A DNA stretch of 64,000 nucleotides from Thermoanaerobaculia bacterium. Lineage in GTDB: Bacteria; Acidobacteriota; Thermoanaerobaculia; Gp7-AA8. A program made the position numbers and the translations under genes. This document shows positions 43,147 through 59,429 of this stretch, piece after piece (within the stretch, counting starts at the first letter, position 1; every line of letters begins with the position of its first letter). Under the pieces are notes generated by a model that saw only the letters and a list, made by a program, of their open reading frames with translations, had not been told where the DNA came from and searched no databases. The stretch covers positions 25,658 to 89,657 of the forward strand of contig DASYMJ010000043.1 in assembly GCA_036009105.1 (NCBI GenBank), written 5' to 3'.

Positions 43147-45828
43147 TCACCGCAGCCCTTCCGCGACGTACAGGTCGTTGAGCACGCGCAGCGCGTTGTA
43201 CGCGTAGGCGCCCGCGTCGGGCGTGATCAGCACCGGCGCGATCTTGTACACGCCCGCCGGATCGGGCGGCGTGAACTGCTTCCACGGCTCGCGCGCGCCG
43301 GTGGCGGGCGTGATGCGCACGACCTGCGCGGGAAGGGCGGTGGGGCGGTAGACGAAGAGCGACTGCGCGTCCGGCGACCAGGCGATCGGCACCTCGCCCT
43401 TCTCGCTGCCGTGCACCGGCAACGGCTGCGCGCTGCCGTCGATGGAGTAGAGGGCGATCGTCTCCTGCGCGGTCATGCCCGCCACCGAGCGGCCATCCGG
43501 CGACACGGCGAAGGGCCGCATCGTCCCGCCCCAGATGCCTTCCGGCGTGACCGGCCTGAGCGTCTCATCGAGCGTGTCGACGAGCAGCAGGCGGTAGCCG
43601 CCGTTCGGCAGCGCGCCGGCGATCACCGCGCGCCGCGAGTCGGGCAGCCAGGCCGCGCCGTTGTCGAAGGCGCCGGCGACCTTCAGCTCGCGCGCCTCGC
43701 CCGGGCCGGTGGGGAGCAGCGTGAGCTTCGCGCCGGCATGGGCGAGCACCCATTTGCCGTCCGGCGAGAGCGCGTCGCCGAAGCCGTCGCCGAGGCGGAT
43801 GGGGGTCGCTTCGCCGGCCCGGCGGAGGAAGACCGCGTTGCGCGCGCCGCCTCCCTCGCGCGTCTCGTTGAAGAGGATGGTCCGGCCGTCCGGCGCGATG
43901 TCGGTCAGGATCGACCAGTCGAGCCACGACACGTCGCGCTCGGTCGCCTCGCCCGGCGGCTGATAGAGCAGCGCGGCGCGCGGCATGCCGTTGGAGAGCA
44001 GGGCCCGGCCGGCGGGGGAGAGGTCGTACAGCTTCATCGCGCCGGTGAGGCGGTTGACCAGTCGCGTGTCGCCGTCGAGCGTCACCGCGTATAGCGCGGG
44101 CGGGCCGCCGCTGTCGCTGCCGGTGACCCAGACTTCCCTGCTATCCGGCGACCAGGCCAGGCCGCTCGCGCCGCGGCTCCAGCCGCTGCCGATGGTGGAC
44201 GGCTGATGCCCGATTTCCAGCGTGCCGATGACGAACTGCCCGCGCAGCTGTTCGATGAACGCGATGCGCTTGCCGTCCGGCGAGAGGCGCAGGTCGTTGA
44301 TGTAGTGCGGCGTCTCGTACTGCACCCGGCCGATGGGGTACTCGATCCGGTTGCGCCCCTGCGTCTGGCGGATGATGGCCAGCGAGCCATCGGAGGCCCA
44401 ATCCGCCTGCAATACGTCGTTCGCCACTTCGCGCGGCGTGCCACCCGCCAGCGGCACGCGGGCGAGGGTGCCGAGGTTGCTGAAGCGGTCGCGGTGGAGC
44501 AGGACGGCCAGCTCCGTCGATTTGGAGATGGCCAGCACCTCGGCGTCCGGGATGCCCAGCGTGCGCGCCTCCGGCGAGTTGCGGTTCCCGACGAAGACCT
44601 CCGGCGGCTGCCCGTCCCACGCGGCGCTGTAGACGATGGTGTCGCCGTCCGGCGCGAAGCGCGCGCCGCGCAGAGTGCCGCGGCGGAAGGTGAGGCGATT
44701 GAAGGCCACGTCGCCCGCCTGCTCGCGGCCATGGTTCGCATACCACCAGCCGCCCCACGCCGCGCCGGCGATGGAGACGAGGAAGAGCAACGCCATGAGC
44801 AGCGGCGAGACGCCGCGGCGTCTCTTGACCGGCTGCAGCGCGGTGCGGGCGCGCGTCTGCATGGTTTGCGGCGTGGCGGAAGTGATGGCGGGCGATGAGC
44901 TGGTGGCGCCGGTCATGGCCGGGCGGCGTTGCGTTGCGGTGTGCGCCGCCGGCGCGATGCCGCTGGCGGTCATGCTGTTCGCCGAGGAGAGCGTCTCCAG
45001 GTTGAAGGCGAGGTCGCGCGCGTTCTGGAAGCGCTGCTCCCGGTCCTTCTCCAGGCAGCGGCGGGTCAGGCGCTCCAGCGCCGTCGGCACGGTCGGCATC
45101 ACCACCGCGATGTCTTCCGGCTCTTCCTTGAGGATGGCGCTGAGCGTCTCGATGGAGGAGTTGCGGCTGAATGCGCGCTTGCCGCACAGCATCTCGTAGA
45201 GGATGGCCCCGAAGGCGAAGATGTCGCTGCGGTAGTCCACCACCTCGCCGCGCACCTGCTCGGGCGACATGTAGCCCACCGTGCCCAGGACCATGCCCGG
45301 CTCGGTGGCGGCCATCTGGAAGGTGGGGCCGTCGCCGGCGCCGGCCCGCGCGCTCAGCTTGGCGATGCCGAAGTCGAGGATCTTCACCCGGCCGTCGCGG
45401 GTGAGGAAGATGTTCTCCGGCTTGAGGTCGCGGTGGACGACCCCTTTCTCGTGCGCGGCGGCCAGGCCGCTGGCTATCTGCAGCCCGAGCTCCACCGCTT
45501 TGCGGGCCGGCACCGGGCCGCGGTTGATCCGGTCGCGCAACGTCTCCCCTTCCAGCAGCTCGCTGACGATGAACGGCGTGCCGGAGGCGTTGCCGATGTC
45601 GTAGATGGTGAGCAGGTTGGGATGGTTGAGCATCCCGGTGGCGCGCGCTTCCTGCACGAAGCGGGTGAGGCGCTCGCGGTCGTCCATGGTGACCGCGGTC
45701 AAAATCTTGACCGCGACGTCGCGCCCCAGCCGGGTGTCTTTCGCGCGGTAGACGGCGCCCATTCCGCCTTCGCCGAGCAGCGTCGCGATCCGGTACGGAC
45801 CGAGAAGGGCACCTTCCGTCAAGGGCAT
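43147..45828 (-). CDS. Ser/Thr protein kinase with transmembrane segment and C-terminal TolB-like beta-propeller
   Basis: Hanks kinase motifs are GEGGMGAVYRA, VAVK, HRDLKPENIFL, DFGIA and GTVGYMSPE. The TM helix is PLLMALLFLVSIAGAAWGGWWY. The C-terminal ~500 aa carry propeller repeats (SPDG). Confidence 0.9.
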   Translation of the reverse strand: MPLTEGALLGPYRIATLLGEGGMGAVYRAKDTRLGRDVAVKILTAVTMDDRERLTRFVQEARATGMLNHPNLLTIYDIGNASGTPFIVSELLEGETLRDRINRGPVPARKAVELGLQIASGLAAAHEKGVVHRDLKPENIFLTRDGRVKILDFGIAKLSARAGAGDGPTFQMAATEPGMVLGTVGYMSPEQVRGEVVDYRSDIFAFGAILYEMLCGKRAFSRNSSIETLSAILKEEPEDIAVVMPTVPTALERLTRRCLEKDREQRFQNARDLAFNLETLSSANSMTASGIAPAAHTATQRRPAMTGATSSSPAITSATPQTMQTRARTALQPVKRRRGVSPLLMALLFLVSIAGAAWGGWWYANHGREQAGDVAFNRLTFRRGTLRGARFAPDGDTIVYSAAWDGQPPEVFVGNRNSPEARTLGIPDAEVLAISKSTELAVLLHRDRFSNLGTLARVPLAGGTPREVANDVLQADWASDGSLAIIRQTQGRNRIEYPIGRVQYETPHYINDLRLSPDGKRIAFIEQLRGQFVIGTLEIGHQPSTIGSGWSRGASGLAWSPDSREVWVTGSDSGGPPALYAVTLDGDTRLVNRLTGAMKLYDLSPAGRALLSNGMPRAALLYQPPGEATERDVSWLDWSILTDIAPDGRTILFNETREGGGARNAVFLRRAGEATPIRLGDGFGDALSPDGKWVLAHAGAKLTLLPTGPGEARELKVAGAFDNGAAWLPDSRRAVIAGALPNGGYRLLLVDTLDETLRPVTPEGIWGGTMRPFAVSPDGRSVAGMTAQETIALYSIDGSAQPLPVHGSEKGEVPIAWSPDAQSLFVYRPTALPAQVVRITPATGAREPWKQFTPPDPAGVYKIAPVLITPDAGAYAYNALRVLNDLYVAEGLR

Positions 45829-47129
45829 GAAGGGCTGATTGTAAGTCCTCTCTGAATGACCATCACGATGGAGCGCGTGTTTGCGATGTTCTCCAGCGGA
45901 TTCCTTTCCAGCAGGATGAGGTCCGCCCGCAGCCCTGCTTTCACCGCGCCAAACTCCTTCTCTTTCTTCAGCGCGTGCGCGGCGTTGCTGGTGGCGATGC
46001 GGATGACTTCCAGCGGTTTGATGCCGGCGTCGGTGAGCAGCTTCAGCTCGTCGTGCAGCGAGGCGCCGGGCACGATCCAGGGGGTGGGGGTGTCGGTGCC
46101 GGCGACGAGCAGCACGCCCTGGTCGTACATCCGCCTGGTCAGCTTCAGCAGGATCGGCCAGGCCTTCTGCGAGGCCGCGTACTGCTCGGCCGTCCAGCCG
46201 CTGGTGAAGCGTCCCGCCGGCCAGCCTTTGAGGATGCGCTCCGGCACCAGCTGGTTGTCCGGGTTCTTCGTGTAGCGCGGATCATCACCCCAGAACTTGG
46301 TGTGCATCGCCATGAGCGTCGGGTCGACCACGACCTGGTGCTTCGCCAGCTCGCCGATCATCTCGTCGATCTTCTTTTCATCGAGATGCTCGAGCCAGTA
46401 GACGCGCCCGAACATGCTCTCCGGCCAAGTCGCCTGATCCGCCTCTTTCACATACTCCACCGACCAGGGCGCCGGATGCTCCAGCCCATCGATCCCCAGC
46501 CGGGCCGCCTCCGTCCAGGTGGTCCGCTGCACGTGCCCGATGACGGGCAGCCCGTGCTTGTGCGCCTCGTCGATGGCCGCCCGGACCAGCTCCGGCGGCA
46601 TGGAGGAGTAGACCTTGATCGCATCCACCCCCGCCGCCGCCTGCCACCGCACCTCCTCCCGCACGGCCTCCTCGGTGCGCACGGTGACGAACGGCTCGGG
46701 GTTGAAGCTCGACGCATTCAGGATCCGCCCCGCGGTGAAGAGGCGGGGCCCCTCCAGCTTCCCTTCCTGCAACAGCCTCCTCACCATGATCGCGTCCCCG
46801 GTCTCCGAGCCCGGATCGCGGATGGTGGTGACGCCCAGCTGCACGAACGTCTTCAGCATCTGCCGCACGGACGGCCTGTCCCACCGCGCTTCCAGCTCCC
46901 CCTTCTCGTTCCACGGATGGGTGAGCAGATGCACGTGCATGTCGACCAGGCCGGGGATGACGTACTTGCCCCGCGCATCGATGACGCGCGCGCCCTTCGG
47001 CCGCGCGCACTTTGCGGCGACGCAGACGATGCGCTCGCCATCGATGACGACCTCCGCCTTGCGCGGCGGCGCGCCGGTGCCGTCGATCACGGTGGCGCCG
47101 GAGAGGACGAGGGCGGCGAGGAGGTGCAT
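45819..47129 (-). CDS. Amidohydrolase family protein (metal-dependent, imidazolonepropionase/Xaa-Pro-dipeptidase-like fold)
   Basis: PGLVDMHVHL (HxH metal site) is present, with a later His and an Asp (GTDTP). Start is placed at the internal ATG (MHLLAALVLSG, signal-like). The gene overlaps the kinase start by 10 nt. Confidence 0.75.
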   Translation of the reverse strand: MHLLAALVLSGATVIDGTGAPPRKAEVVIDGERIVCVAAKCARPKGARVIDARGKYVIPGLVDMHVHLLTHPWNEKGELEARWDRPSVRQMLKTFVQLGVTTIRDPGSETGDAIMVRRLLQEGKLEGPRLFTAGRILNASSFNPEPFVTVRTEEAVREEVRWQAAAGVDAIKVYSSMPPELVRAAIDEAHKHGLPVIGHVQRTTWTEAARLGIDGLEHPAPWSVEYVKEADQATWPESMFGRVYWLEHLDEKKIDEMIGELAKHQVVVDPTLMAMHTKFWGDDPRYTKNPDNQLVPERILKGWPAGRFTSGWTAEQYAASQKAWPILLKLTRRMYDQGVLLVAGTDTPTPWIVPGASLHDELKLLTDAGIKPLEVIRIATSNAAHALKKEKEFGAVKAGLRADLILLERNPLENIANTRSIVMVIQRGLTISPSCP

Positions 47130-47198
47130 GGGGGCGTATTGTCGCCCGTGGCGGGGCCGCTGCTCGACAATCGGGAGCGCGGAGTAAAATGACAATCG

Positions 47199-47426
47199 AT
47201 GGCGCGCGATCTCAAGGAACTGATCGGAGAGGCGGCGGAGTTGCCGGAGTCCGACCGAGCGACATTGGCGGGTGCCATGCTCGAAAGTCTCGATCCTGCG
47301 CCGAGCGCAGAGGTGAAGGCAGCGTGGTCGAGAGAGATCGAGCGGCGGGTCCGCGAAATTGATGACGGTACCGTCGAGCTGATCGACTGGGACGATGTCC
47401 GCGCGGAGCTGTTTGCCGACGAATGA
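47199..47426 (+). CDS. Putative addiction-module antitoxin (CHP02574/Unstable_antitox-like family)
   Basis: 75 aa. The LPESDRATLAGAMLESL...REIDDGTVELIDWDDVRAEL pattern matches the putative addiction module component family. The stop overlaps the toxin ATG. Confidence 0.65.
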   Translation: MARDLKELIGEAAELPESDRATLAGAMLESLDPAPSAEVKAAWSREIERRVREIDDGTVELIDWDDVRAELFADE

Positions 47427-47690
47427 GGGTGAAGTTTCACCCCGAGGCGCGGGTCGATCTCAAAGAAGGGAAGGCTTCTATCGCCATCGCAGTCCGCTCG
47501 CGGCGGTCGCTTTCGCGCACCAGATCGAAGCGGCGCTGTCCGATATCCGGCAGGTGAGTACGGGACCCGTGAGCACGTGCTTTCTTCACACTTCCCGTAC
47601 ACGATCGTCTATCGACTGCGCAATGACCTCATCGTAGTCGTTGCGGTTGCGCACCACAGCCGTGACCGCGGCTATTGGCATCATCGATAG
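47423..47690 (+). pseudogene. ParE/RelE-family toxin gene disrupted by two single-nucleotide deletions (frameshifts)
   Basis: The protein reads MRVKFHPEARVDLKEGKA in frame 1, FYRHRSPLAAVAFAHQIEAALSDIRQ...FLHT in frame 2 and FPYTIVYRLRNDLIVVVAVAHHSRDRGYWHHR in frame 3. Restoring one T at each CTTTC to CTTC site (ggcttctat; acacttcccg) gives a continuous 89-aa ParE-like protein. Confidence 0.65.
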
Positions 47691-47706
47691 CCGCACCGCG
47701 CGGCCC

Positions 47707-49464
47707 CTAAGCCGCCACCGCGTCGCTTCTTGCGCTCTGCTCGCGCCAGAGCGCCGCATACAACCCGCCCTCCCCCAGCAGCGAGGTGTGCGTGCCCGTC
47801 TCCACCACCCGCCCCTTGGCCAGCACGTAGATGTGTTGGGCGTGTTGGATGGTGGAGAGGCGGTGGGCCACGAGCACCGTCATGCGGCGGTGCTGGCCGG
47901 AGGTGAGGCCGCGGATCGTTTCGGTGATGGCGCGCTCGGTGATGGAGTCGAGGCTGGAGGTCGCCTCGTCGAAGATCATCAGCTCCGGCTGGCGGAGCAG
48001 GGCGCGGGCGATGGCCAGGCGCTGGCGCTCGCCGCCGGAGATCTTGATCCCCCCCTCGCCGATCTTGGTGTCGAGGCCTTTGCCGCCGCGCTCGATGATG
48101 GGGAGGGCGGAGGCCTGGCGCAGCACCTCGATGCACTCGGCGTCGCTGGCGCGGGGGTTCACGAAGAGGAGGTTGTCGCGGATGGTGCCGGCGAAGAGCT
48201 GCGTGTCCTGCGTGACCAGTCCGATGCGGGCGCGCAAGGCGTCGGGGTCGATGAGCGAGGCGTCGGTCTCATTGACGGCGAGCTGGCCGGAGGTCGGCTG
48301 ATAGAGGCCGACCAGCAGCTTGACCAGCGAGGTCTTCCCGGAGCCGGACGGGCCGACGAACGCCACCGTGTCTCCCGCCTCGATGTGCAGGTTCACCCCT
48401 TCCAGGGAGGGGGTCGAGGCGGACGGATAGGTGAAGGAGACGTCGAGGAAATCCACCGACGTCAGCGGGCCGAGGGGAACGGGCTGGGCCGGCTTCGGCG
48501 CGGGCTCGATCTCCAGCACCTCCTCCAGCTTCTCCATGCTCGCCTTCGCCTCCTGGTACTGCGCAATGATCGCCCCCAGCTCGGCCAGCGGCGAGAAGAC
48601 GGCGAACGAATAGAAGAAGAGCGAGAAGAACTGCCCCAGGGTGATGGCGTGGCTGTAATTGAGCCACAGCATGAGGAACAGCAGCCCGGCGCGCGTGGTG
48701 TTGATGGTCGTCCCCTGCAGGAACGAATAGAAGCGGAGGAAGCGCACCTTCTTCAGCTCCAGATCGAGGATCTGGGCATTGACGGAATTGAGGCGCGCGA
48801 TCTCCTGCCCTTCCAGCCCCAGCGACTTGACCAGCTCCACGTTGCGCAGCGTTTCCGTGGTGGCGCCGGCCAGCTCCGCGGTCTGGGTCACGATCACCCG
48901 CTGCTGCGTCTTGATGCGCCGGCTGATGTAGAACATGAGCGTCCCCAGCACCGGCGCCAGCAGCAGGTAAACGAGGCCGATCGACCAGTGCACCGTGAAG
49001 GCGTAGACGGTCACGAACAACAGCCCCACCAGCGAGACGAACACCATGTTGATGAAGTTGGTGATGAGCGACTGCGCGTCCGACCGCGCCTTCTGCATCT
49101 TCTGCAGGATCTCGCCCGAGCGCTGGTCTTCGAACACGGAGTAGGGCAACGAGAACGAGTGCGAGACGCTCCGCTCGTACAGCTGCGCGCCGACGCGCTG
49201 GGCGATCACGTTGACGGAGTAGTCCTGGAAGTTCTTGGCGATGCGGGAGACCAGCGCCACGCCGACGTACGCCAGCAGGAGGAGCAGCACGCCGTGCACG
49301 AACTCCTGGCGGGTGAGGTAGGCCACCTTCGTCGCGTAGCGGTCGACGATCAGCCGGAAGACCTGCGGGTCGAGCAGGGAGAAGACCTGGTTGATGGTGG
49401 CCAGGACCAGGGCGCCGGTGAGGAGGCGCTTTTGGCGGGAGAGGTAGTGGGCGAGCAACTGCAT
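47707..49464 (-). CDS. ABC exporter, fused permease/ATP-binding protein (MsbA-like type I exporter)
   Basis: Six TM helices precede the NBD. Walker A is GPSGSGKTS, the signature is ISGGERQRLAIARAL, and Walker B is LMIFDEATSSLD. Confidence 0.9.
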   Translation of the reverse strand: MQLLAHYLSRQKRLLTGALVLATINQVFSLLDPQVFRLIVDRYATKVAYLTRQEFVHGVLLLLLAYVGVALVSRIAKNFQDYSVNVIAQRVGAQLYERSVSHSFSLPYSVFEDQRSGEILQKMQKARSDAQSLITNFINMVFVSLVGLLFVTVYAFTVHWSIGLVYLLLAPVLGTLMFYISRRIKTQQRVIVTQTAELAGATTETLRNVELVKSLGLEGQEIARLNSVNAQILDLELKKVRFLRFYSFLQGTTINTTRAGLLFLMLWLNYSHAITLGQFFSLFFYSFAVFSPLAELGAIIAQYQEAKASMEKLEEVLEIEPAPKPAQPVPLGPLTSVDFLDVSFTYPSASTPSLEGVNLHIEAGDTVAFVGPSGSGKTSLVKLLVGLYQPTSGQLAVNETDASLIDPDALRARIGLVTQDTQLFAGTIRDNLLFVNPRASDAECIEVLRQASALPIIERGGKGLDTKIGEGGIKISGGERQRLAIARALLRQPELMIFDEATSSLDSITERAITETIRGLTSGQHRRMTVLVAHRLSTIQHAQHIYVLAKGRVVETGTHTSLLGEGGLYAALWREQSARSDAVAA

Positions 49465-49471
49465 CGCGCGA

Positions 49472-51106
49472 TTATCTCCCCCCGAAAACCACGCTGAAGA
49501 AATCGCCTTCCTTCCACTCCGGGCGGGTCGGCGCGTTGGCCACCTCCAGCCCGAGGCGGAAATTCGTCTCCGCGTAGCGCGCGCCGGAGGGGTAGTCGAT
49601 CTTCTGGGAGAGGTCGTCGTGCACGGTGTGGTAGACGGTGCGCAGCCACTCCCGCGAGACCTTCTCCCCGTCGATGGCCGGATCGCTGCTCTTCGGGCCG
49701 GCCTTGAGGTGGATGGCCGGGATGCCCTTCTTCACGAAGGAGTACTGGTCGCTGCGGATGAAGCGCACCTCTTCCGGCTGCGGATCGGGGCTGATGGTGA
49801 AGCCCGTCGCCTCCGCCGCGCGGCGCGCCGCGTCGCCGAGGGTGGTGTGCTCGCCGCCGAGGGCGACCAGGTCCGCGACCGGGTAATGCATCTGGAACAT
49901 GTCCATGTTGATGTCCGCCACGATGGAGGACGGCGGCACGGTGGGGTACTGGGCGAAGAACTCCGAGCCCTGCTCGCCTTTCTCCTCGCCCGTGACGGCG
50001 ACGAAGAGCACCGAGCGGGCGGGCGCCTTCGGCAGCGAGGCGAAGGCGCGGGCGATCTCCAGCAGCGCGGCGATGCCCGAGCCGTTGTCCAGCGCGCCGT
50101 TGTAGATGTGGTCCGCGCCGCTGCCGTGCGCGCCGAGGTGGTCGAGGTGGGCGGTGTAGAGGACGTATTCGTCGCGGCGCTGCTCGTCGCTGCCGCGCAG
50201 CACGCCCGCCACGTTCTTGCTGGTCACCACCTCGAAGCTGGTCTCCGTGTGCGCCGAGAGCGTGCCGTGCAGCGGGAAGGAATGGGCGGTGCCTTTCTCG
50301 GCGTCGTCGAGCACCTGGTCGAGCGTGAGCGGCGTCCCCACGAACAGCTTCGCCGCGGTCTCGCGGCTGAGCAGCGCCTCGACCTTCAGCCGCGGCTCGA
50401 CGTCCGCCGGGTTGTCGTCGTGATCGAGATAGCGCATGGAGGCGATGTTCGTCTGGCGCGAGGTCTTCTCGAACGGGAAGCGCCGCTCGTCGGTGATGCT
50501 TTTCACGCTGATCAGCCCCACCGCGCCGCGCTTCGCCGCCGCCGCTTCCTTCATCTCCGTCGCCGAATAAAGGGCGCGCTGGTCGACCGGGAAGGTCACC
50601 GGCGCGCCGGTGACGACGAGCACGATCTTCCCCTTCACGTCGAGCTTCGCATAGTCATCGTGCTCGAGCTCCGGCGCGGAAATGCCGAAGCCGGCGAAGA
50701 CCACCGGCGCCGAAACCTCCGAAGAAGCGTCGGCGAAGTAGGGGCGGATGAGGATGTCCTTGCGGTGCTCCAGCTTCGTGGTCGTGCCGCCGTCGCGGAG
50801 GGTGAAGGAGCACTTTTCGGGGACGAGCTGCGCGGAGCGGAAGCGGATGGGCTGGAACCAGCTGCCTTCGCTGCCGGCGGGCTCGAGGCCGAGGGCCATC
50901 AGCTTCGCGGCGACGTACGCGGCGGCGACGTCGTAGCCGCGCGAGCCGGTCTCGCGGCCTTCCAGGACGTCGTCCGCCAGGAAGCGGATGTGGGACTCGA
51001 TGGCGCGCGGCTCGATGGCCGGCAATTCCGCGCCGACGGCGGGCGCGGCGAGCAGGAAGATGAGGGGGAGTATGGACTTACGCACGGACGGGACAGTGTA
51101 GTGCAA
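49472..51106 (-). CDS. M28 family zinc peptidase with PA domain, secreted
   Basis: It has a signal peptide. M28 ligand regions are HLDHLGAHGSGADHIYNGALDNGSGIAALLEIA, VTGEEKG and HTVHDD. Confidence 0.85.
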   Translation of the reverse strand: MHYTVPSVRKSILPLIFLLAAPAVGAELPAIEPRAIESHIRFLADDVLEGRETGSRGYDVAAAYVAAKLMALGLEPAGSEGSWFQPIRFRSAQLVPEKCSFTLRDGGTTTKLEHRKDILIRPYFADASSEVSAPVVFAGFGISAPELEHDDYAKLDVKGKIVLVVTGAPVTFPVDQRALYSATEMKEAAAAKRGAVGLISVKSITDERRFPFEKTSRQTNIASMRYLDHDDNPADVEPRLKVEALLSRETAAKLFVGTPLTLDQVLDDAEKGTAHSFPLHGTLSAHTETSFEVVTSKNVAGVLRGSDEQRRDEYVLYTAHLDHLGAHGSGADHIYNGALDNGSGIAALLEIARAFASLPKAPARSVLFVAVTGEEKGEQGSEFFAQYPTVPPSSIVADINMDMFQMHYPVADLVALGGEHTTLGDAARRAAEATGFTISPDPQPEEVRFIRSDQYSFVKKGIPAIHLKAGPKSSDPAIDGEKVSREWLRTVYHTVHDDLSQKIDYPSGARYAETNFRLGLEVANAPTRPEWKEGDFFSVVFGGR

Positions 51107-58769: not shown

Positions 58770-59429
58770 ATGACTGAAGAACAGGTCTTCTGGCTGGCCC
58801 TCGGCGGCTTCGCGCTGCTCTTCGCGCTCCTGATGATCTACGCCTCGAAGCGGTCGTCGAAGCGGCAGCAGATCTTCACCCGCATCGCGCAGGAGCTCGG
58901 GATCCAGGACGTCCGCCGCTCCTGGCTGGTCGGCGCCGGCGTGCGCGGCACCTGGAATGGCTACCCCGTCCGCCAGCAGCTCCTCGGCCGCTACAAAGGG
59001 GTCCCCGAGCGGCTGCTCACGACCGTCACCCTGCAGAGCCCGGGACGGATCATGATCACGCGCCGGGTCGGCAAGGTGCTGAGCAAGCCGATGACGCTCT
59101 TCGGCCCGAAGCTGGTGACGCCGATGACGCCCGCCGTCCAGGAGCGCTTCTGGGTGCGCAGCGATCAGCCCGCGTTCGTGGAGCGTTTCTTCGCCTCATC
59201 CGAGGCCGTGCCGCTGCTGGAGCAGAATCTGATCGAGCGCTTCGATCTGGTCGACCTCAACGCGCGGCGCCTCCTGGTCCGCCGCGCCACGGACGAGCGC
59301 CAGGTGCGCGCCAGGTACGGCATCGCCACCATCAACTTCAAGCGCGACATGCGCTACATCGAGACCATCGCCCGCGAGGAATGGGCGCTGGCCACGATGA
59401 TCATCCGCGAGCTGTCGCTGCGGCCGTGA
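58770..59429 (+). CDS. Hypothetical membrane-anchored protein
   Basis: There is an N-terminal TM helix (FWLALGGFALLFALLMIYA). The frame is GC3-rich. I recognise no known domain. Confidence 0.5.
   Translation: MTEEQVFWLALGGFALLFALLMIYASKRSSKRQQIFTRIAQELGIQDVRRSWLVGAGVRGTWNGYPVRQQLLGRYKGVPERLLTTVTLQSPGRIMITRRVGKVLSKPMTLFGPKLVTPMTPAVQERFWVRSDQPAFVERFFASSEAVPLLEQNLIERFDLVDLNARRLLVRRATDERQVRARYGIATINFKRDMRYIETIAREEWALATMIIRELSLRP

Follow-up and report, generated by a model that had tools for sequence, protein, structure and literature searches.

A probable case of toxin-first decay in a ParE-type toxin–antitoxin operon of an uncultured member of the Thermoanaerobaculia

The 64,000-nt stretch of DNA analyzed here (hereafter the window) belongs to a MAG of an uncultured soil member of the Thermoanaerobaculia (Acidobacteriota) and carries a toxin–antitoxin (TA) operon flanked by an amidohydrolase gene on one side and a convergent ABC transporter gene on the other (Table 1). 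The neighborhood is chromosomal in character: positions 44199 to 50426 hold genes for an 893-aa Ser/Thr kinase that carries Tricorn/PD40-like repeats and for the amidohydrolase, then the TA pair and genes for an ABC-B transporter of 585 aa and an M28 peptidase, and no integrase or transposase adjoins the TA pair within this interval. An antisense ORF of 171 aa that runs across the locus (47087–47602) is attributed to the high G+C content of the stretch, which is full of similarly long ORFs in all six frames that have no counterpart among the called genes.

Table 1. Features of the TA locus in the window and toxin lesions at related loci; locations with an L number refer to the respective locus.
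Feature	Location	Strand	Basis or remark
TAAAAT, -10-like hexamer, probable promoter element	47185..47190	+	conservation only; 8 nt upstream of antitoxin ATG
Antitoxin gene, 75 aa, PF09720 Unstab_antitox / TIGR02574	47199..47426	+	ORF, HMM matches, orthologues
Toxin remnant segment 1, codons 1-18 (MRVKFHPEARVDLKEGKA), original frame	47423..47476	+	94% identity to P0001 residues 1-18
Lesion 1, one base lost: CTTC vs CTTTC in L003 (GCT TTC to GCT TC)	47475..47478	+	DNA alignment, codon table
Toxin remnant segment 2, codons 19-39 (FYRHRSPLAAVAFAHQIEAAL), shifted -1	47477..47538	+	DNA alignment, homologues
Lesion 2 junction, 22-nt deletion, leftover TC	47539..47540	+	22-column alignment gap; codons 36-50 of 13 loci
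Toxin remnant segment 3, codons 48-96 + TAG (RYPAGEYGTREHVLSSHFPYTIVYRLRNDLIVVVAVAHHSRDRGYWHHR*), shifted -2 in total	47541..47690	+	tblastn, homologue alignment
L007/L008/L011: 5-nt deletion in toxin after FPYTV	L007:full, L008:7042-7330, L011:1-1400		antitoxin complete, 75 aa (L008)
L013: toxin frameshift, codons 75-77	L013:436-768		antitoxin complete, 75 aa
L014: toxin frameshift, codons 70/71	L014:86-372		antitoxin runs off contig
L015: toxin truncated after codon 64	L015:1501-1782		antitoxin N-terminus also altered
L016: toxin double frameshift + stop, codons 44-65	L016:1501-1788		antitoxin complete, 75 aa

The antitoxin matches PF09720 (Unstab_antitox) with 52.8 bits (E = 4e-14; cut-off 23.3) and TIGR02574 ("putative addiction module component") with 35.1 bits (cut-off 31.9), and an exact look-up found it deposited as HEV7919696.1, "addiction module protein". 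It is colinear with the antitoxins of five related loci over their full length and without gaps at 77–88% identity, and its dN/dS ratios against orthologues are low (0.03–0.07, including 0.07 against the syntenic locus L003 described below). Searches of PDB sequences with the antitoxin returned chance matches alone and no solved relative by sequence. Its TGA stop (47424–47426) overlaps the toxin ATG (47423–47425) in an ATGA at 47423–47426, and the antitoxin gene also lies directly 5' of the toxin gene at L003, L004, L006, L008, L009, L012, L013 and L016; related loci pair it with intact PF05016 partners, and in the window it is followed by a toxin remnant. Codon 10 of the window antitoxin (47226–47228) encodes Gly, in contrast to Arg in each of the eight other antitoxins examined (ELIREA to ELIGEA), and T36S and P37A are specific to this lineage as well. 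R10G may mean that the antitoxin is beginning to drift, with small numbers behind the comparison.

Just upstream of the antitoxin ATG, a hexamer of the form TA(A/G)AAT is found at a distance of 6–9 nt in eight of nine related loci (the window, L003, L004, L006, L008, L012, L013 and L016), and the sequence farther upstream is unrelated. No Shine-Dalgarno sequence is seen at the usual distance from the antitoxin start, a scan for consensus promoters and terminators across 46900–47900 flagged nothing, TAAAAT included, and nothing remarkable emerged among the short repeats and palindromes of the locus. The conservation of the hexamer suggests that it could be a -10 element and that the antitoxins of this family may be made from leaderless or near-leaderless transcripts.

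In the 268 nt after the antitoxin (47423–47690), ParE-like sequence runs through three frames one after another (phases 47423, 47425 and 47424), and the closest intact homologue, P0001, finds the window by tblastn with E = 5e-27. We mapped the lesions by DNA alignment with two intact loci, L003 and L004, which revealed exactly two gaps. At the first, the window reads GCT-TC-TAT (47474–47481) where 13 out of 13 related loci have GCN TTY TAY. At the second, flanked by CTG (47536–47538) and CGA (47541–47543), a leftover TC stands in place of eight codons of the relatives (x-R-I-A-E-A-P-L), so that seven codons and one base are gone, including R41, I42 and P46, each conserved to at least 90% in the family. 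The junction reads GCGCTG-TC-CGATATCC (GCGCTG-TC-CGATAT), and the letters of the window within 47400–47700 include GGCTTCTAT. Across this junction, tblastn gives a single segment in one frame (47529–47687) with 79% identity to P0001, followed by the TAG stop of the remnant at 47688–47690. Read from its ATG, the toxin yields no in-frame product longer than a peptide of 44 aa, which ends at a stop at 47557. An uninterrupted toxin ORF of ~90–100 aa is thus absent in the window, which differs from the intact homologues of 95–102 aa by the 1-nt and the 22-nt deletion. Repaired conceptually under the guidance of homologues, the toxin matches PF05016 (ParE_toxin) with 45.1 bits (cut-off 23), and it does so only after this repair.

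Much of what an earlier note on this DNA had described is borne out by these results, namely the intact 75-aa antitoxin (an ORF with HMM matches above their cut-offs), the overlap of its stop with the toxin ATG, the ParE-like toxin broken over three frames and the loss of one base at ggcttctat. The second frameshift was misplaced: the note had put it at acacttcccg (47591), where the DNA alignment is free of gaps and the one tblastn segment continues unbroken, and what it took for another lost T is really the 22-nt deletion at 47538/47541, ~50 nt upstream. Adding one T each at 47476 and 47591, as the note had proposed, does produce a conceptual ORF of 89 aa that scores 40.1 bits in Pfam, but this is not the ancestral protein of 96–97 aa. 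We rejected this repair because its score stays behind the 45.1 bits of the homologue-guided version and because both alignment and tblastn contradict it; it leaves the stretch QVSTGPVSTCFLHT out of frame, while the true frame reads RYPAGEYGTREHVLSSHFPY and is identical to P0001 at 18 of 20 positions. Both frames are open across 47541–47595, so a reader without homologues could not have placed the shift. We note that placing frameshifts from open frames alone is unsafe, as the repair with two T's yields a plausible but wrong protein.

A search with the conceptually repaired toxin returned 116 homologues, mostly of 96–97 aa, of which P0001 is the best with 82% identity and around 100 are uninterrupted proteins of 95–102 aa with PF05016. 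P0001 is encoded at L003 (Logan SRR27941614), where the order of amidohydrolase, antitoxin, intact 96-aa toxin and ABC transporter genes is syntenic with the window and the flanking DNA matches that of the window at 89% and 85% identity. A scan of genome contigs for the 28-mer at the TA junction found one other MAG, a Thermoanaerobaculia SMAG, in which the toxin is intact. Between amidohydrolase and antitoxin, L003 has an extra insert of ~690 bp (L003:1741–2432) that encodes a 204-aa protein, for which Pfam records no family and whose hydrophobic N-terminal stretch looks by eye like a signal peptide. Opposite to it, the window has only 69 bp (47146–47213), and homology resumes ~15 nt before the antitoxin ATG, which places an indel directly beside the TA cassette. 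An ORF of 204 aa lies beside the TA pair in both L003 and L004, and we considered these ORFs as a conserved third component; they are unrelated to each other, and this idea was dropped.

Compared with the toxin of L003, the remnant in the window has a dN/dS of 0.09 at a dS of ~0.85, and intact pairs range from 0.06 to 0.13. Outside of the deletion, it deviates at only three columns that are conserved to at least 90% (P62S, R64H and E90D); intact homologues show a median of one deviation at the same columns, with three or more in 24 of 102. The low ratio and the few deviations indicate that purifying selection acted on the toxin through almost the whole period after the lineages of the window and L003 had parted, and the inactivation therefore looks recent.

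The assignment of the toxin family to ParE rather than RelE rests on the ranking of a family profile against solved structures, in which ParE proteins come first (8c26 ParE2 with E = 1e-7, then 5cw7/5czf, 6x0a and 3kxe) and RelE/StbE reach only E = 0.54. This ranking suggests that the ParE label is reasonable but remote.

Taken together, the locus is very probably a chromosomal type II TA operon of the ParE / TIGR02574 type in which the toxin has been destroyed by two real deletions and the antitoxin left intact. Of the two readings that the earlier note had offered, TA decay by inactivation of the toxin beside an antitoxin that stays intact is the one supported by the comparison of the lesions with the syntenic, intact L003. 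Before its toxin was lost, the operon would have worked as a ParE-type addiction module with a labile antitoxin translated first and a toxin gene overlapping its end by 4 nt; toxicity of the intact family and its neutralization by an antitoxin such as that of the window are putative. Translation from the toxin ATG would now give 18 native residues and 26 out-of-frame residues, i.e., the 44-aa peptide; the beta-sheet core and the C-terminal region, which all intact homologues possess, would never be made in frame, so that no active toxin is expected. Antitoxin ORF and conserved -10-like element are untouched, and antitoxin expression presumably continues. Loss of the toxin would be harmless and loss of the antitoxin first would be lethal, hence it would be the toxin that goes first, and the antitoxin that lingers could either be neutral or still neutralize a related toxin elsewhere. 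The region 47423–47690 should be labeled as a ParE-family pseudogene and the antitoxin as an orphan.

The window is not the only place where a toxin of this family has been lost. Using a scan of public contigs for the 28-mer that spans antitoxin stop and toxin start and a look-up of truncated homologues, we found five further toxin lesions of independent origin (Table 1), which brings the disrupted lineages to at least six, including the window, among ~116 cluster representatives; six of these loci were inspected as DNA. The protein P0110, known as protein only, may represent a seventh. In four of the six disrupted lineages (the window, L008, L013 and L016), the 75-aa antitoxin is complete. 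One lineage is represented by three JGI metagenome contigs, L007, L008 and L011 (Ga0075418, Ga0075428 and Ga0114129), and the 98.8% identity of L008 and L011 implies that the state with a dead toxin has persisted through strain divergence of 1.2%.

Among the alternatives to a passive relic, selection on the orphan antitoxin survives best, though we regard it as unlikely. According to this explanation, the antitoxin is kept for anti-addiction or for cross-neutralization of a related ParE encoded in the genome, on a plasmid or by a phage, a concept that is established for ccd (PMC2654758). It would fit the intact antitoxin ORF and -10-like motif in the window as well as the sister lineage in which three metagenome contigs, from strains 1.2% apart, combine a dead toxin with an intact antitoxin. 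However, a plausible target is missing from the places searched: the 64-kb window contains no second ParE homologue, with only chance-level matches to either toxin or antitoxin, and close homologues of the toxin are missing from the plasmid and phage collections (best plasmid match 41.7% identity; none in phages). One "antitoxin-like" match at 59189–59338 (30% identity, E = 8e-4) was discarded because its translation, when inspected, did not resemble an antitoxin. R10G at an otherwise invariant position also counts against selection, and, given that the loss of the toxin looks recent, an intact antitoxin would be expected by default, which makes a neutral relic the default reading of the window antitoxin. 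Still more doubtful, in our view, is the broader proposition that orphan antitoxins of this family are selectively maintained rather than transient relics, e.g., as immunity against ParE toxins of uncharacterized soil mobile elements. It is based on the independent death of the toxin in six lineages (~116 representatives) and on the persistence of the antitoxin across strain divergence in one of four.

Far less probable is that the frameshifts are artefacts of sequencing or assembly and that the toxin is really intact, and we see little room for the suggestion of the earlier note that both lesions are homopolymer sequencing errors. Lesion 1 does lie in a short run of T (TTT to TT compared with L003) and, taken alone, could still be an error, yet this is immaterial because the 22-nt deletion suffices on its own, and a loss of 22 nt is no homopolymer miscall. 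The window is furthermore 100% identical to a 55.8-kb JGI contig (3300035668) without any indel over the 6,228 nt compared and to a Logan contig (SRR11678612) over 1,031 nt, so that three assemblies agree base for base; they are separate assemblies but perhaps derive from the same sample or read set and may not represent separate samples. On the JGI contig, four neighboring genes (436 and 585 aa complete; 893 and 537 aa running off the fetched stretch) are undisrupted internally and bear the expected Pfam domains. No intact toxin closer to the window than the 82% of P0001 was found among 5.8 billion proteins, which again speaks against a near-identical intact version. In the annotation deposited for the 102,831-bp contig of this TPA Thermoanaerobaculia MAG, the amidohydrolase (HEV7919695.1), the addiction module protein and the ABC transporter (HEV7919697.1) are numbered consecutively across the gap, meaning that no toxin protein was called there either. 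The match to two other assemblies and the nature of the 22-nt deletion led us to reject sequencing error as an explanation and argue strongly that the lesions are real in the organism. Production of the toxin by programmed ribosomal frameshifting or as a functional split protein can practically be set aside, since all three frames are indeed open across the junctions but two shifts would be required, seven codons including nearly invariant residues are gone from the window, the frameshift is not shared at a slippery site by homologues, ~100 of which are single unbroken ORFs of 95–102 aa, and the breaks in the disrupted relatives fall at different points.

Destruction of the toxin gene by two deletions, with the antitoxin left as an orphan, makes the locus a clean and syntenically anchored example of toxin-first TA decay in an uncultured member of the Acidobacteriota, with parallel cases in the same family. 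The phenomenon as such is well known, and this new instance has little import beyond correct annotation. In comparison to ParE toxins (PF05016; e.g., 8c26 ParE2, 5cw7/5czf E. coli O157 ParE2 and 3kxe Caulobacter ParE1), the family shares the PF05016 match, a length of ~96 aa and a gene that directly follows and overlaps the antitoxin gene. Unlike in these systems, the toxin gene of the window is a pseudogene and is paired with an antitoxin of the PF09720/TIGR02574 type instead of ParD or PaaA2; similarity to characterized ParE proteins is remote (single-sequence E = 0.14–0.41), and gyrase poisoning by the intact family is putative. With anti-addiction modules and orphan antitoxins, the locus has in common that an intact antitoxin lacks a working cognate toxin, but no target toxin was found in the window, plasmids or phages, and the case is known from sequence alone.

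There are close parallels with TA decay in Enterobacterales. In Photorhabdus, pseudogenization affects the toxin only (N = 185) far more often than the antitoxin only (N = 8), and a two-step model has been put forward in which decaying TA systems lose the toxin before the antitoxin (PMC13617665). In E. coli, ccdO157 decays in the same manner according to the passage of PMC2654758 that cites Mine et al. 2009. As far as these accounts go, our findings agree with the two-step model that they describe for Enterobacterales (PMC13617665, PMC2654758): small deletions or a truncation put the toxin out of action and the antitoxin ORF stays, the locus lies on the chromosome in synteny with intact copies of its relatives, and inactivation recurs independently within one family. 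Measured against the same passages, the case presented here comes from another phylum (Acidobacteriota, Thermoanaerobaculia) and another TA subfamily, and it is seen in metagenome sequence only.
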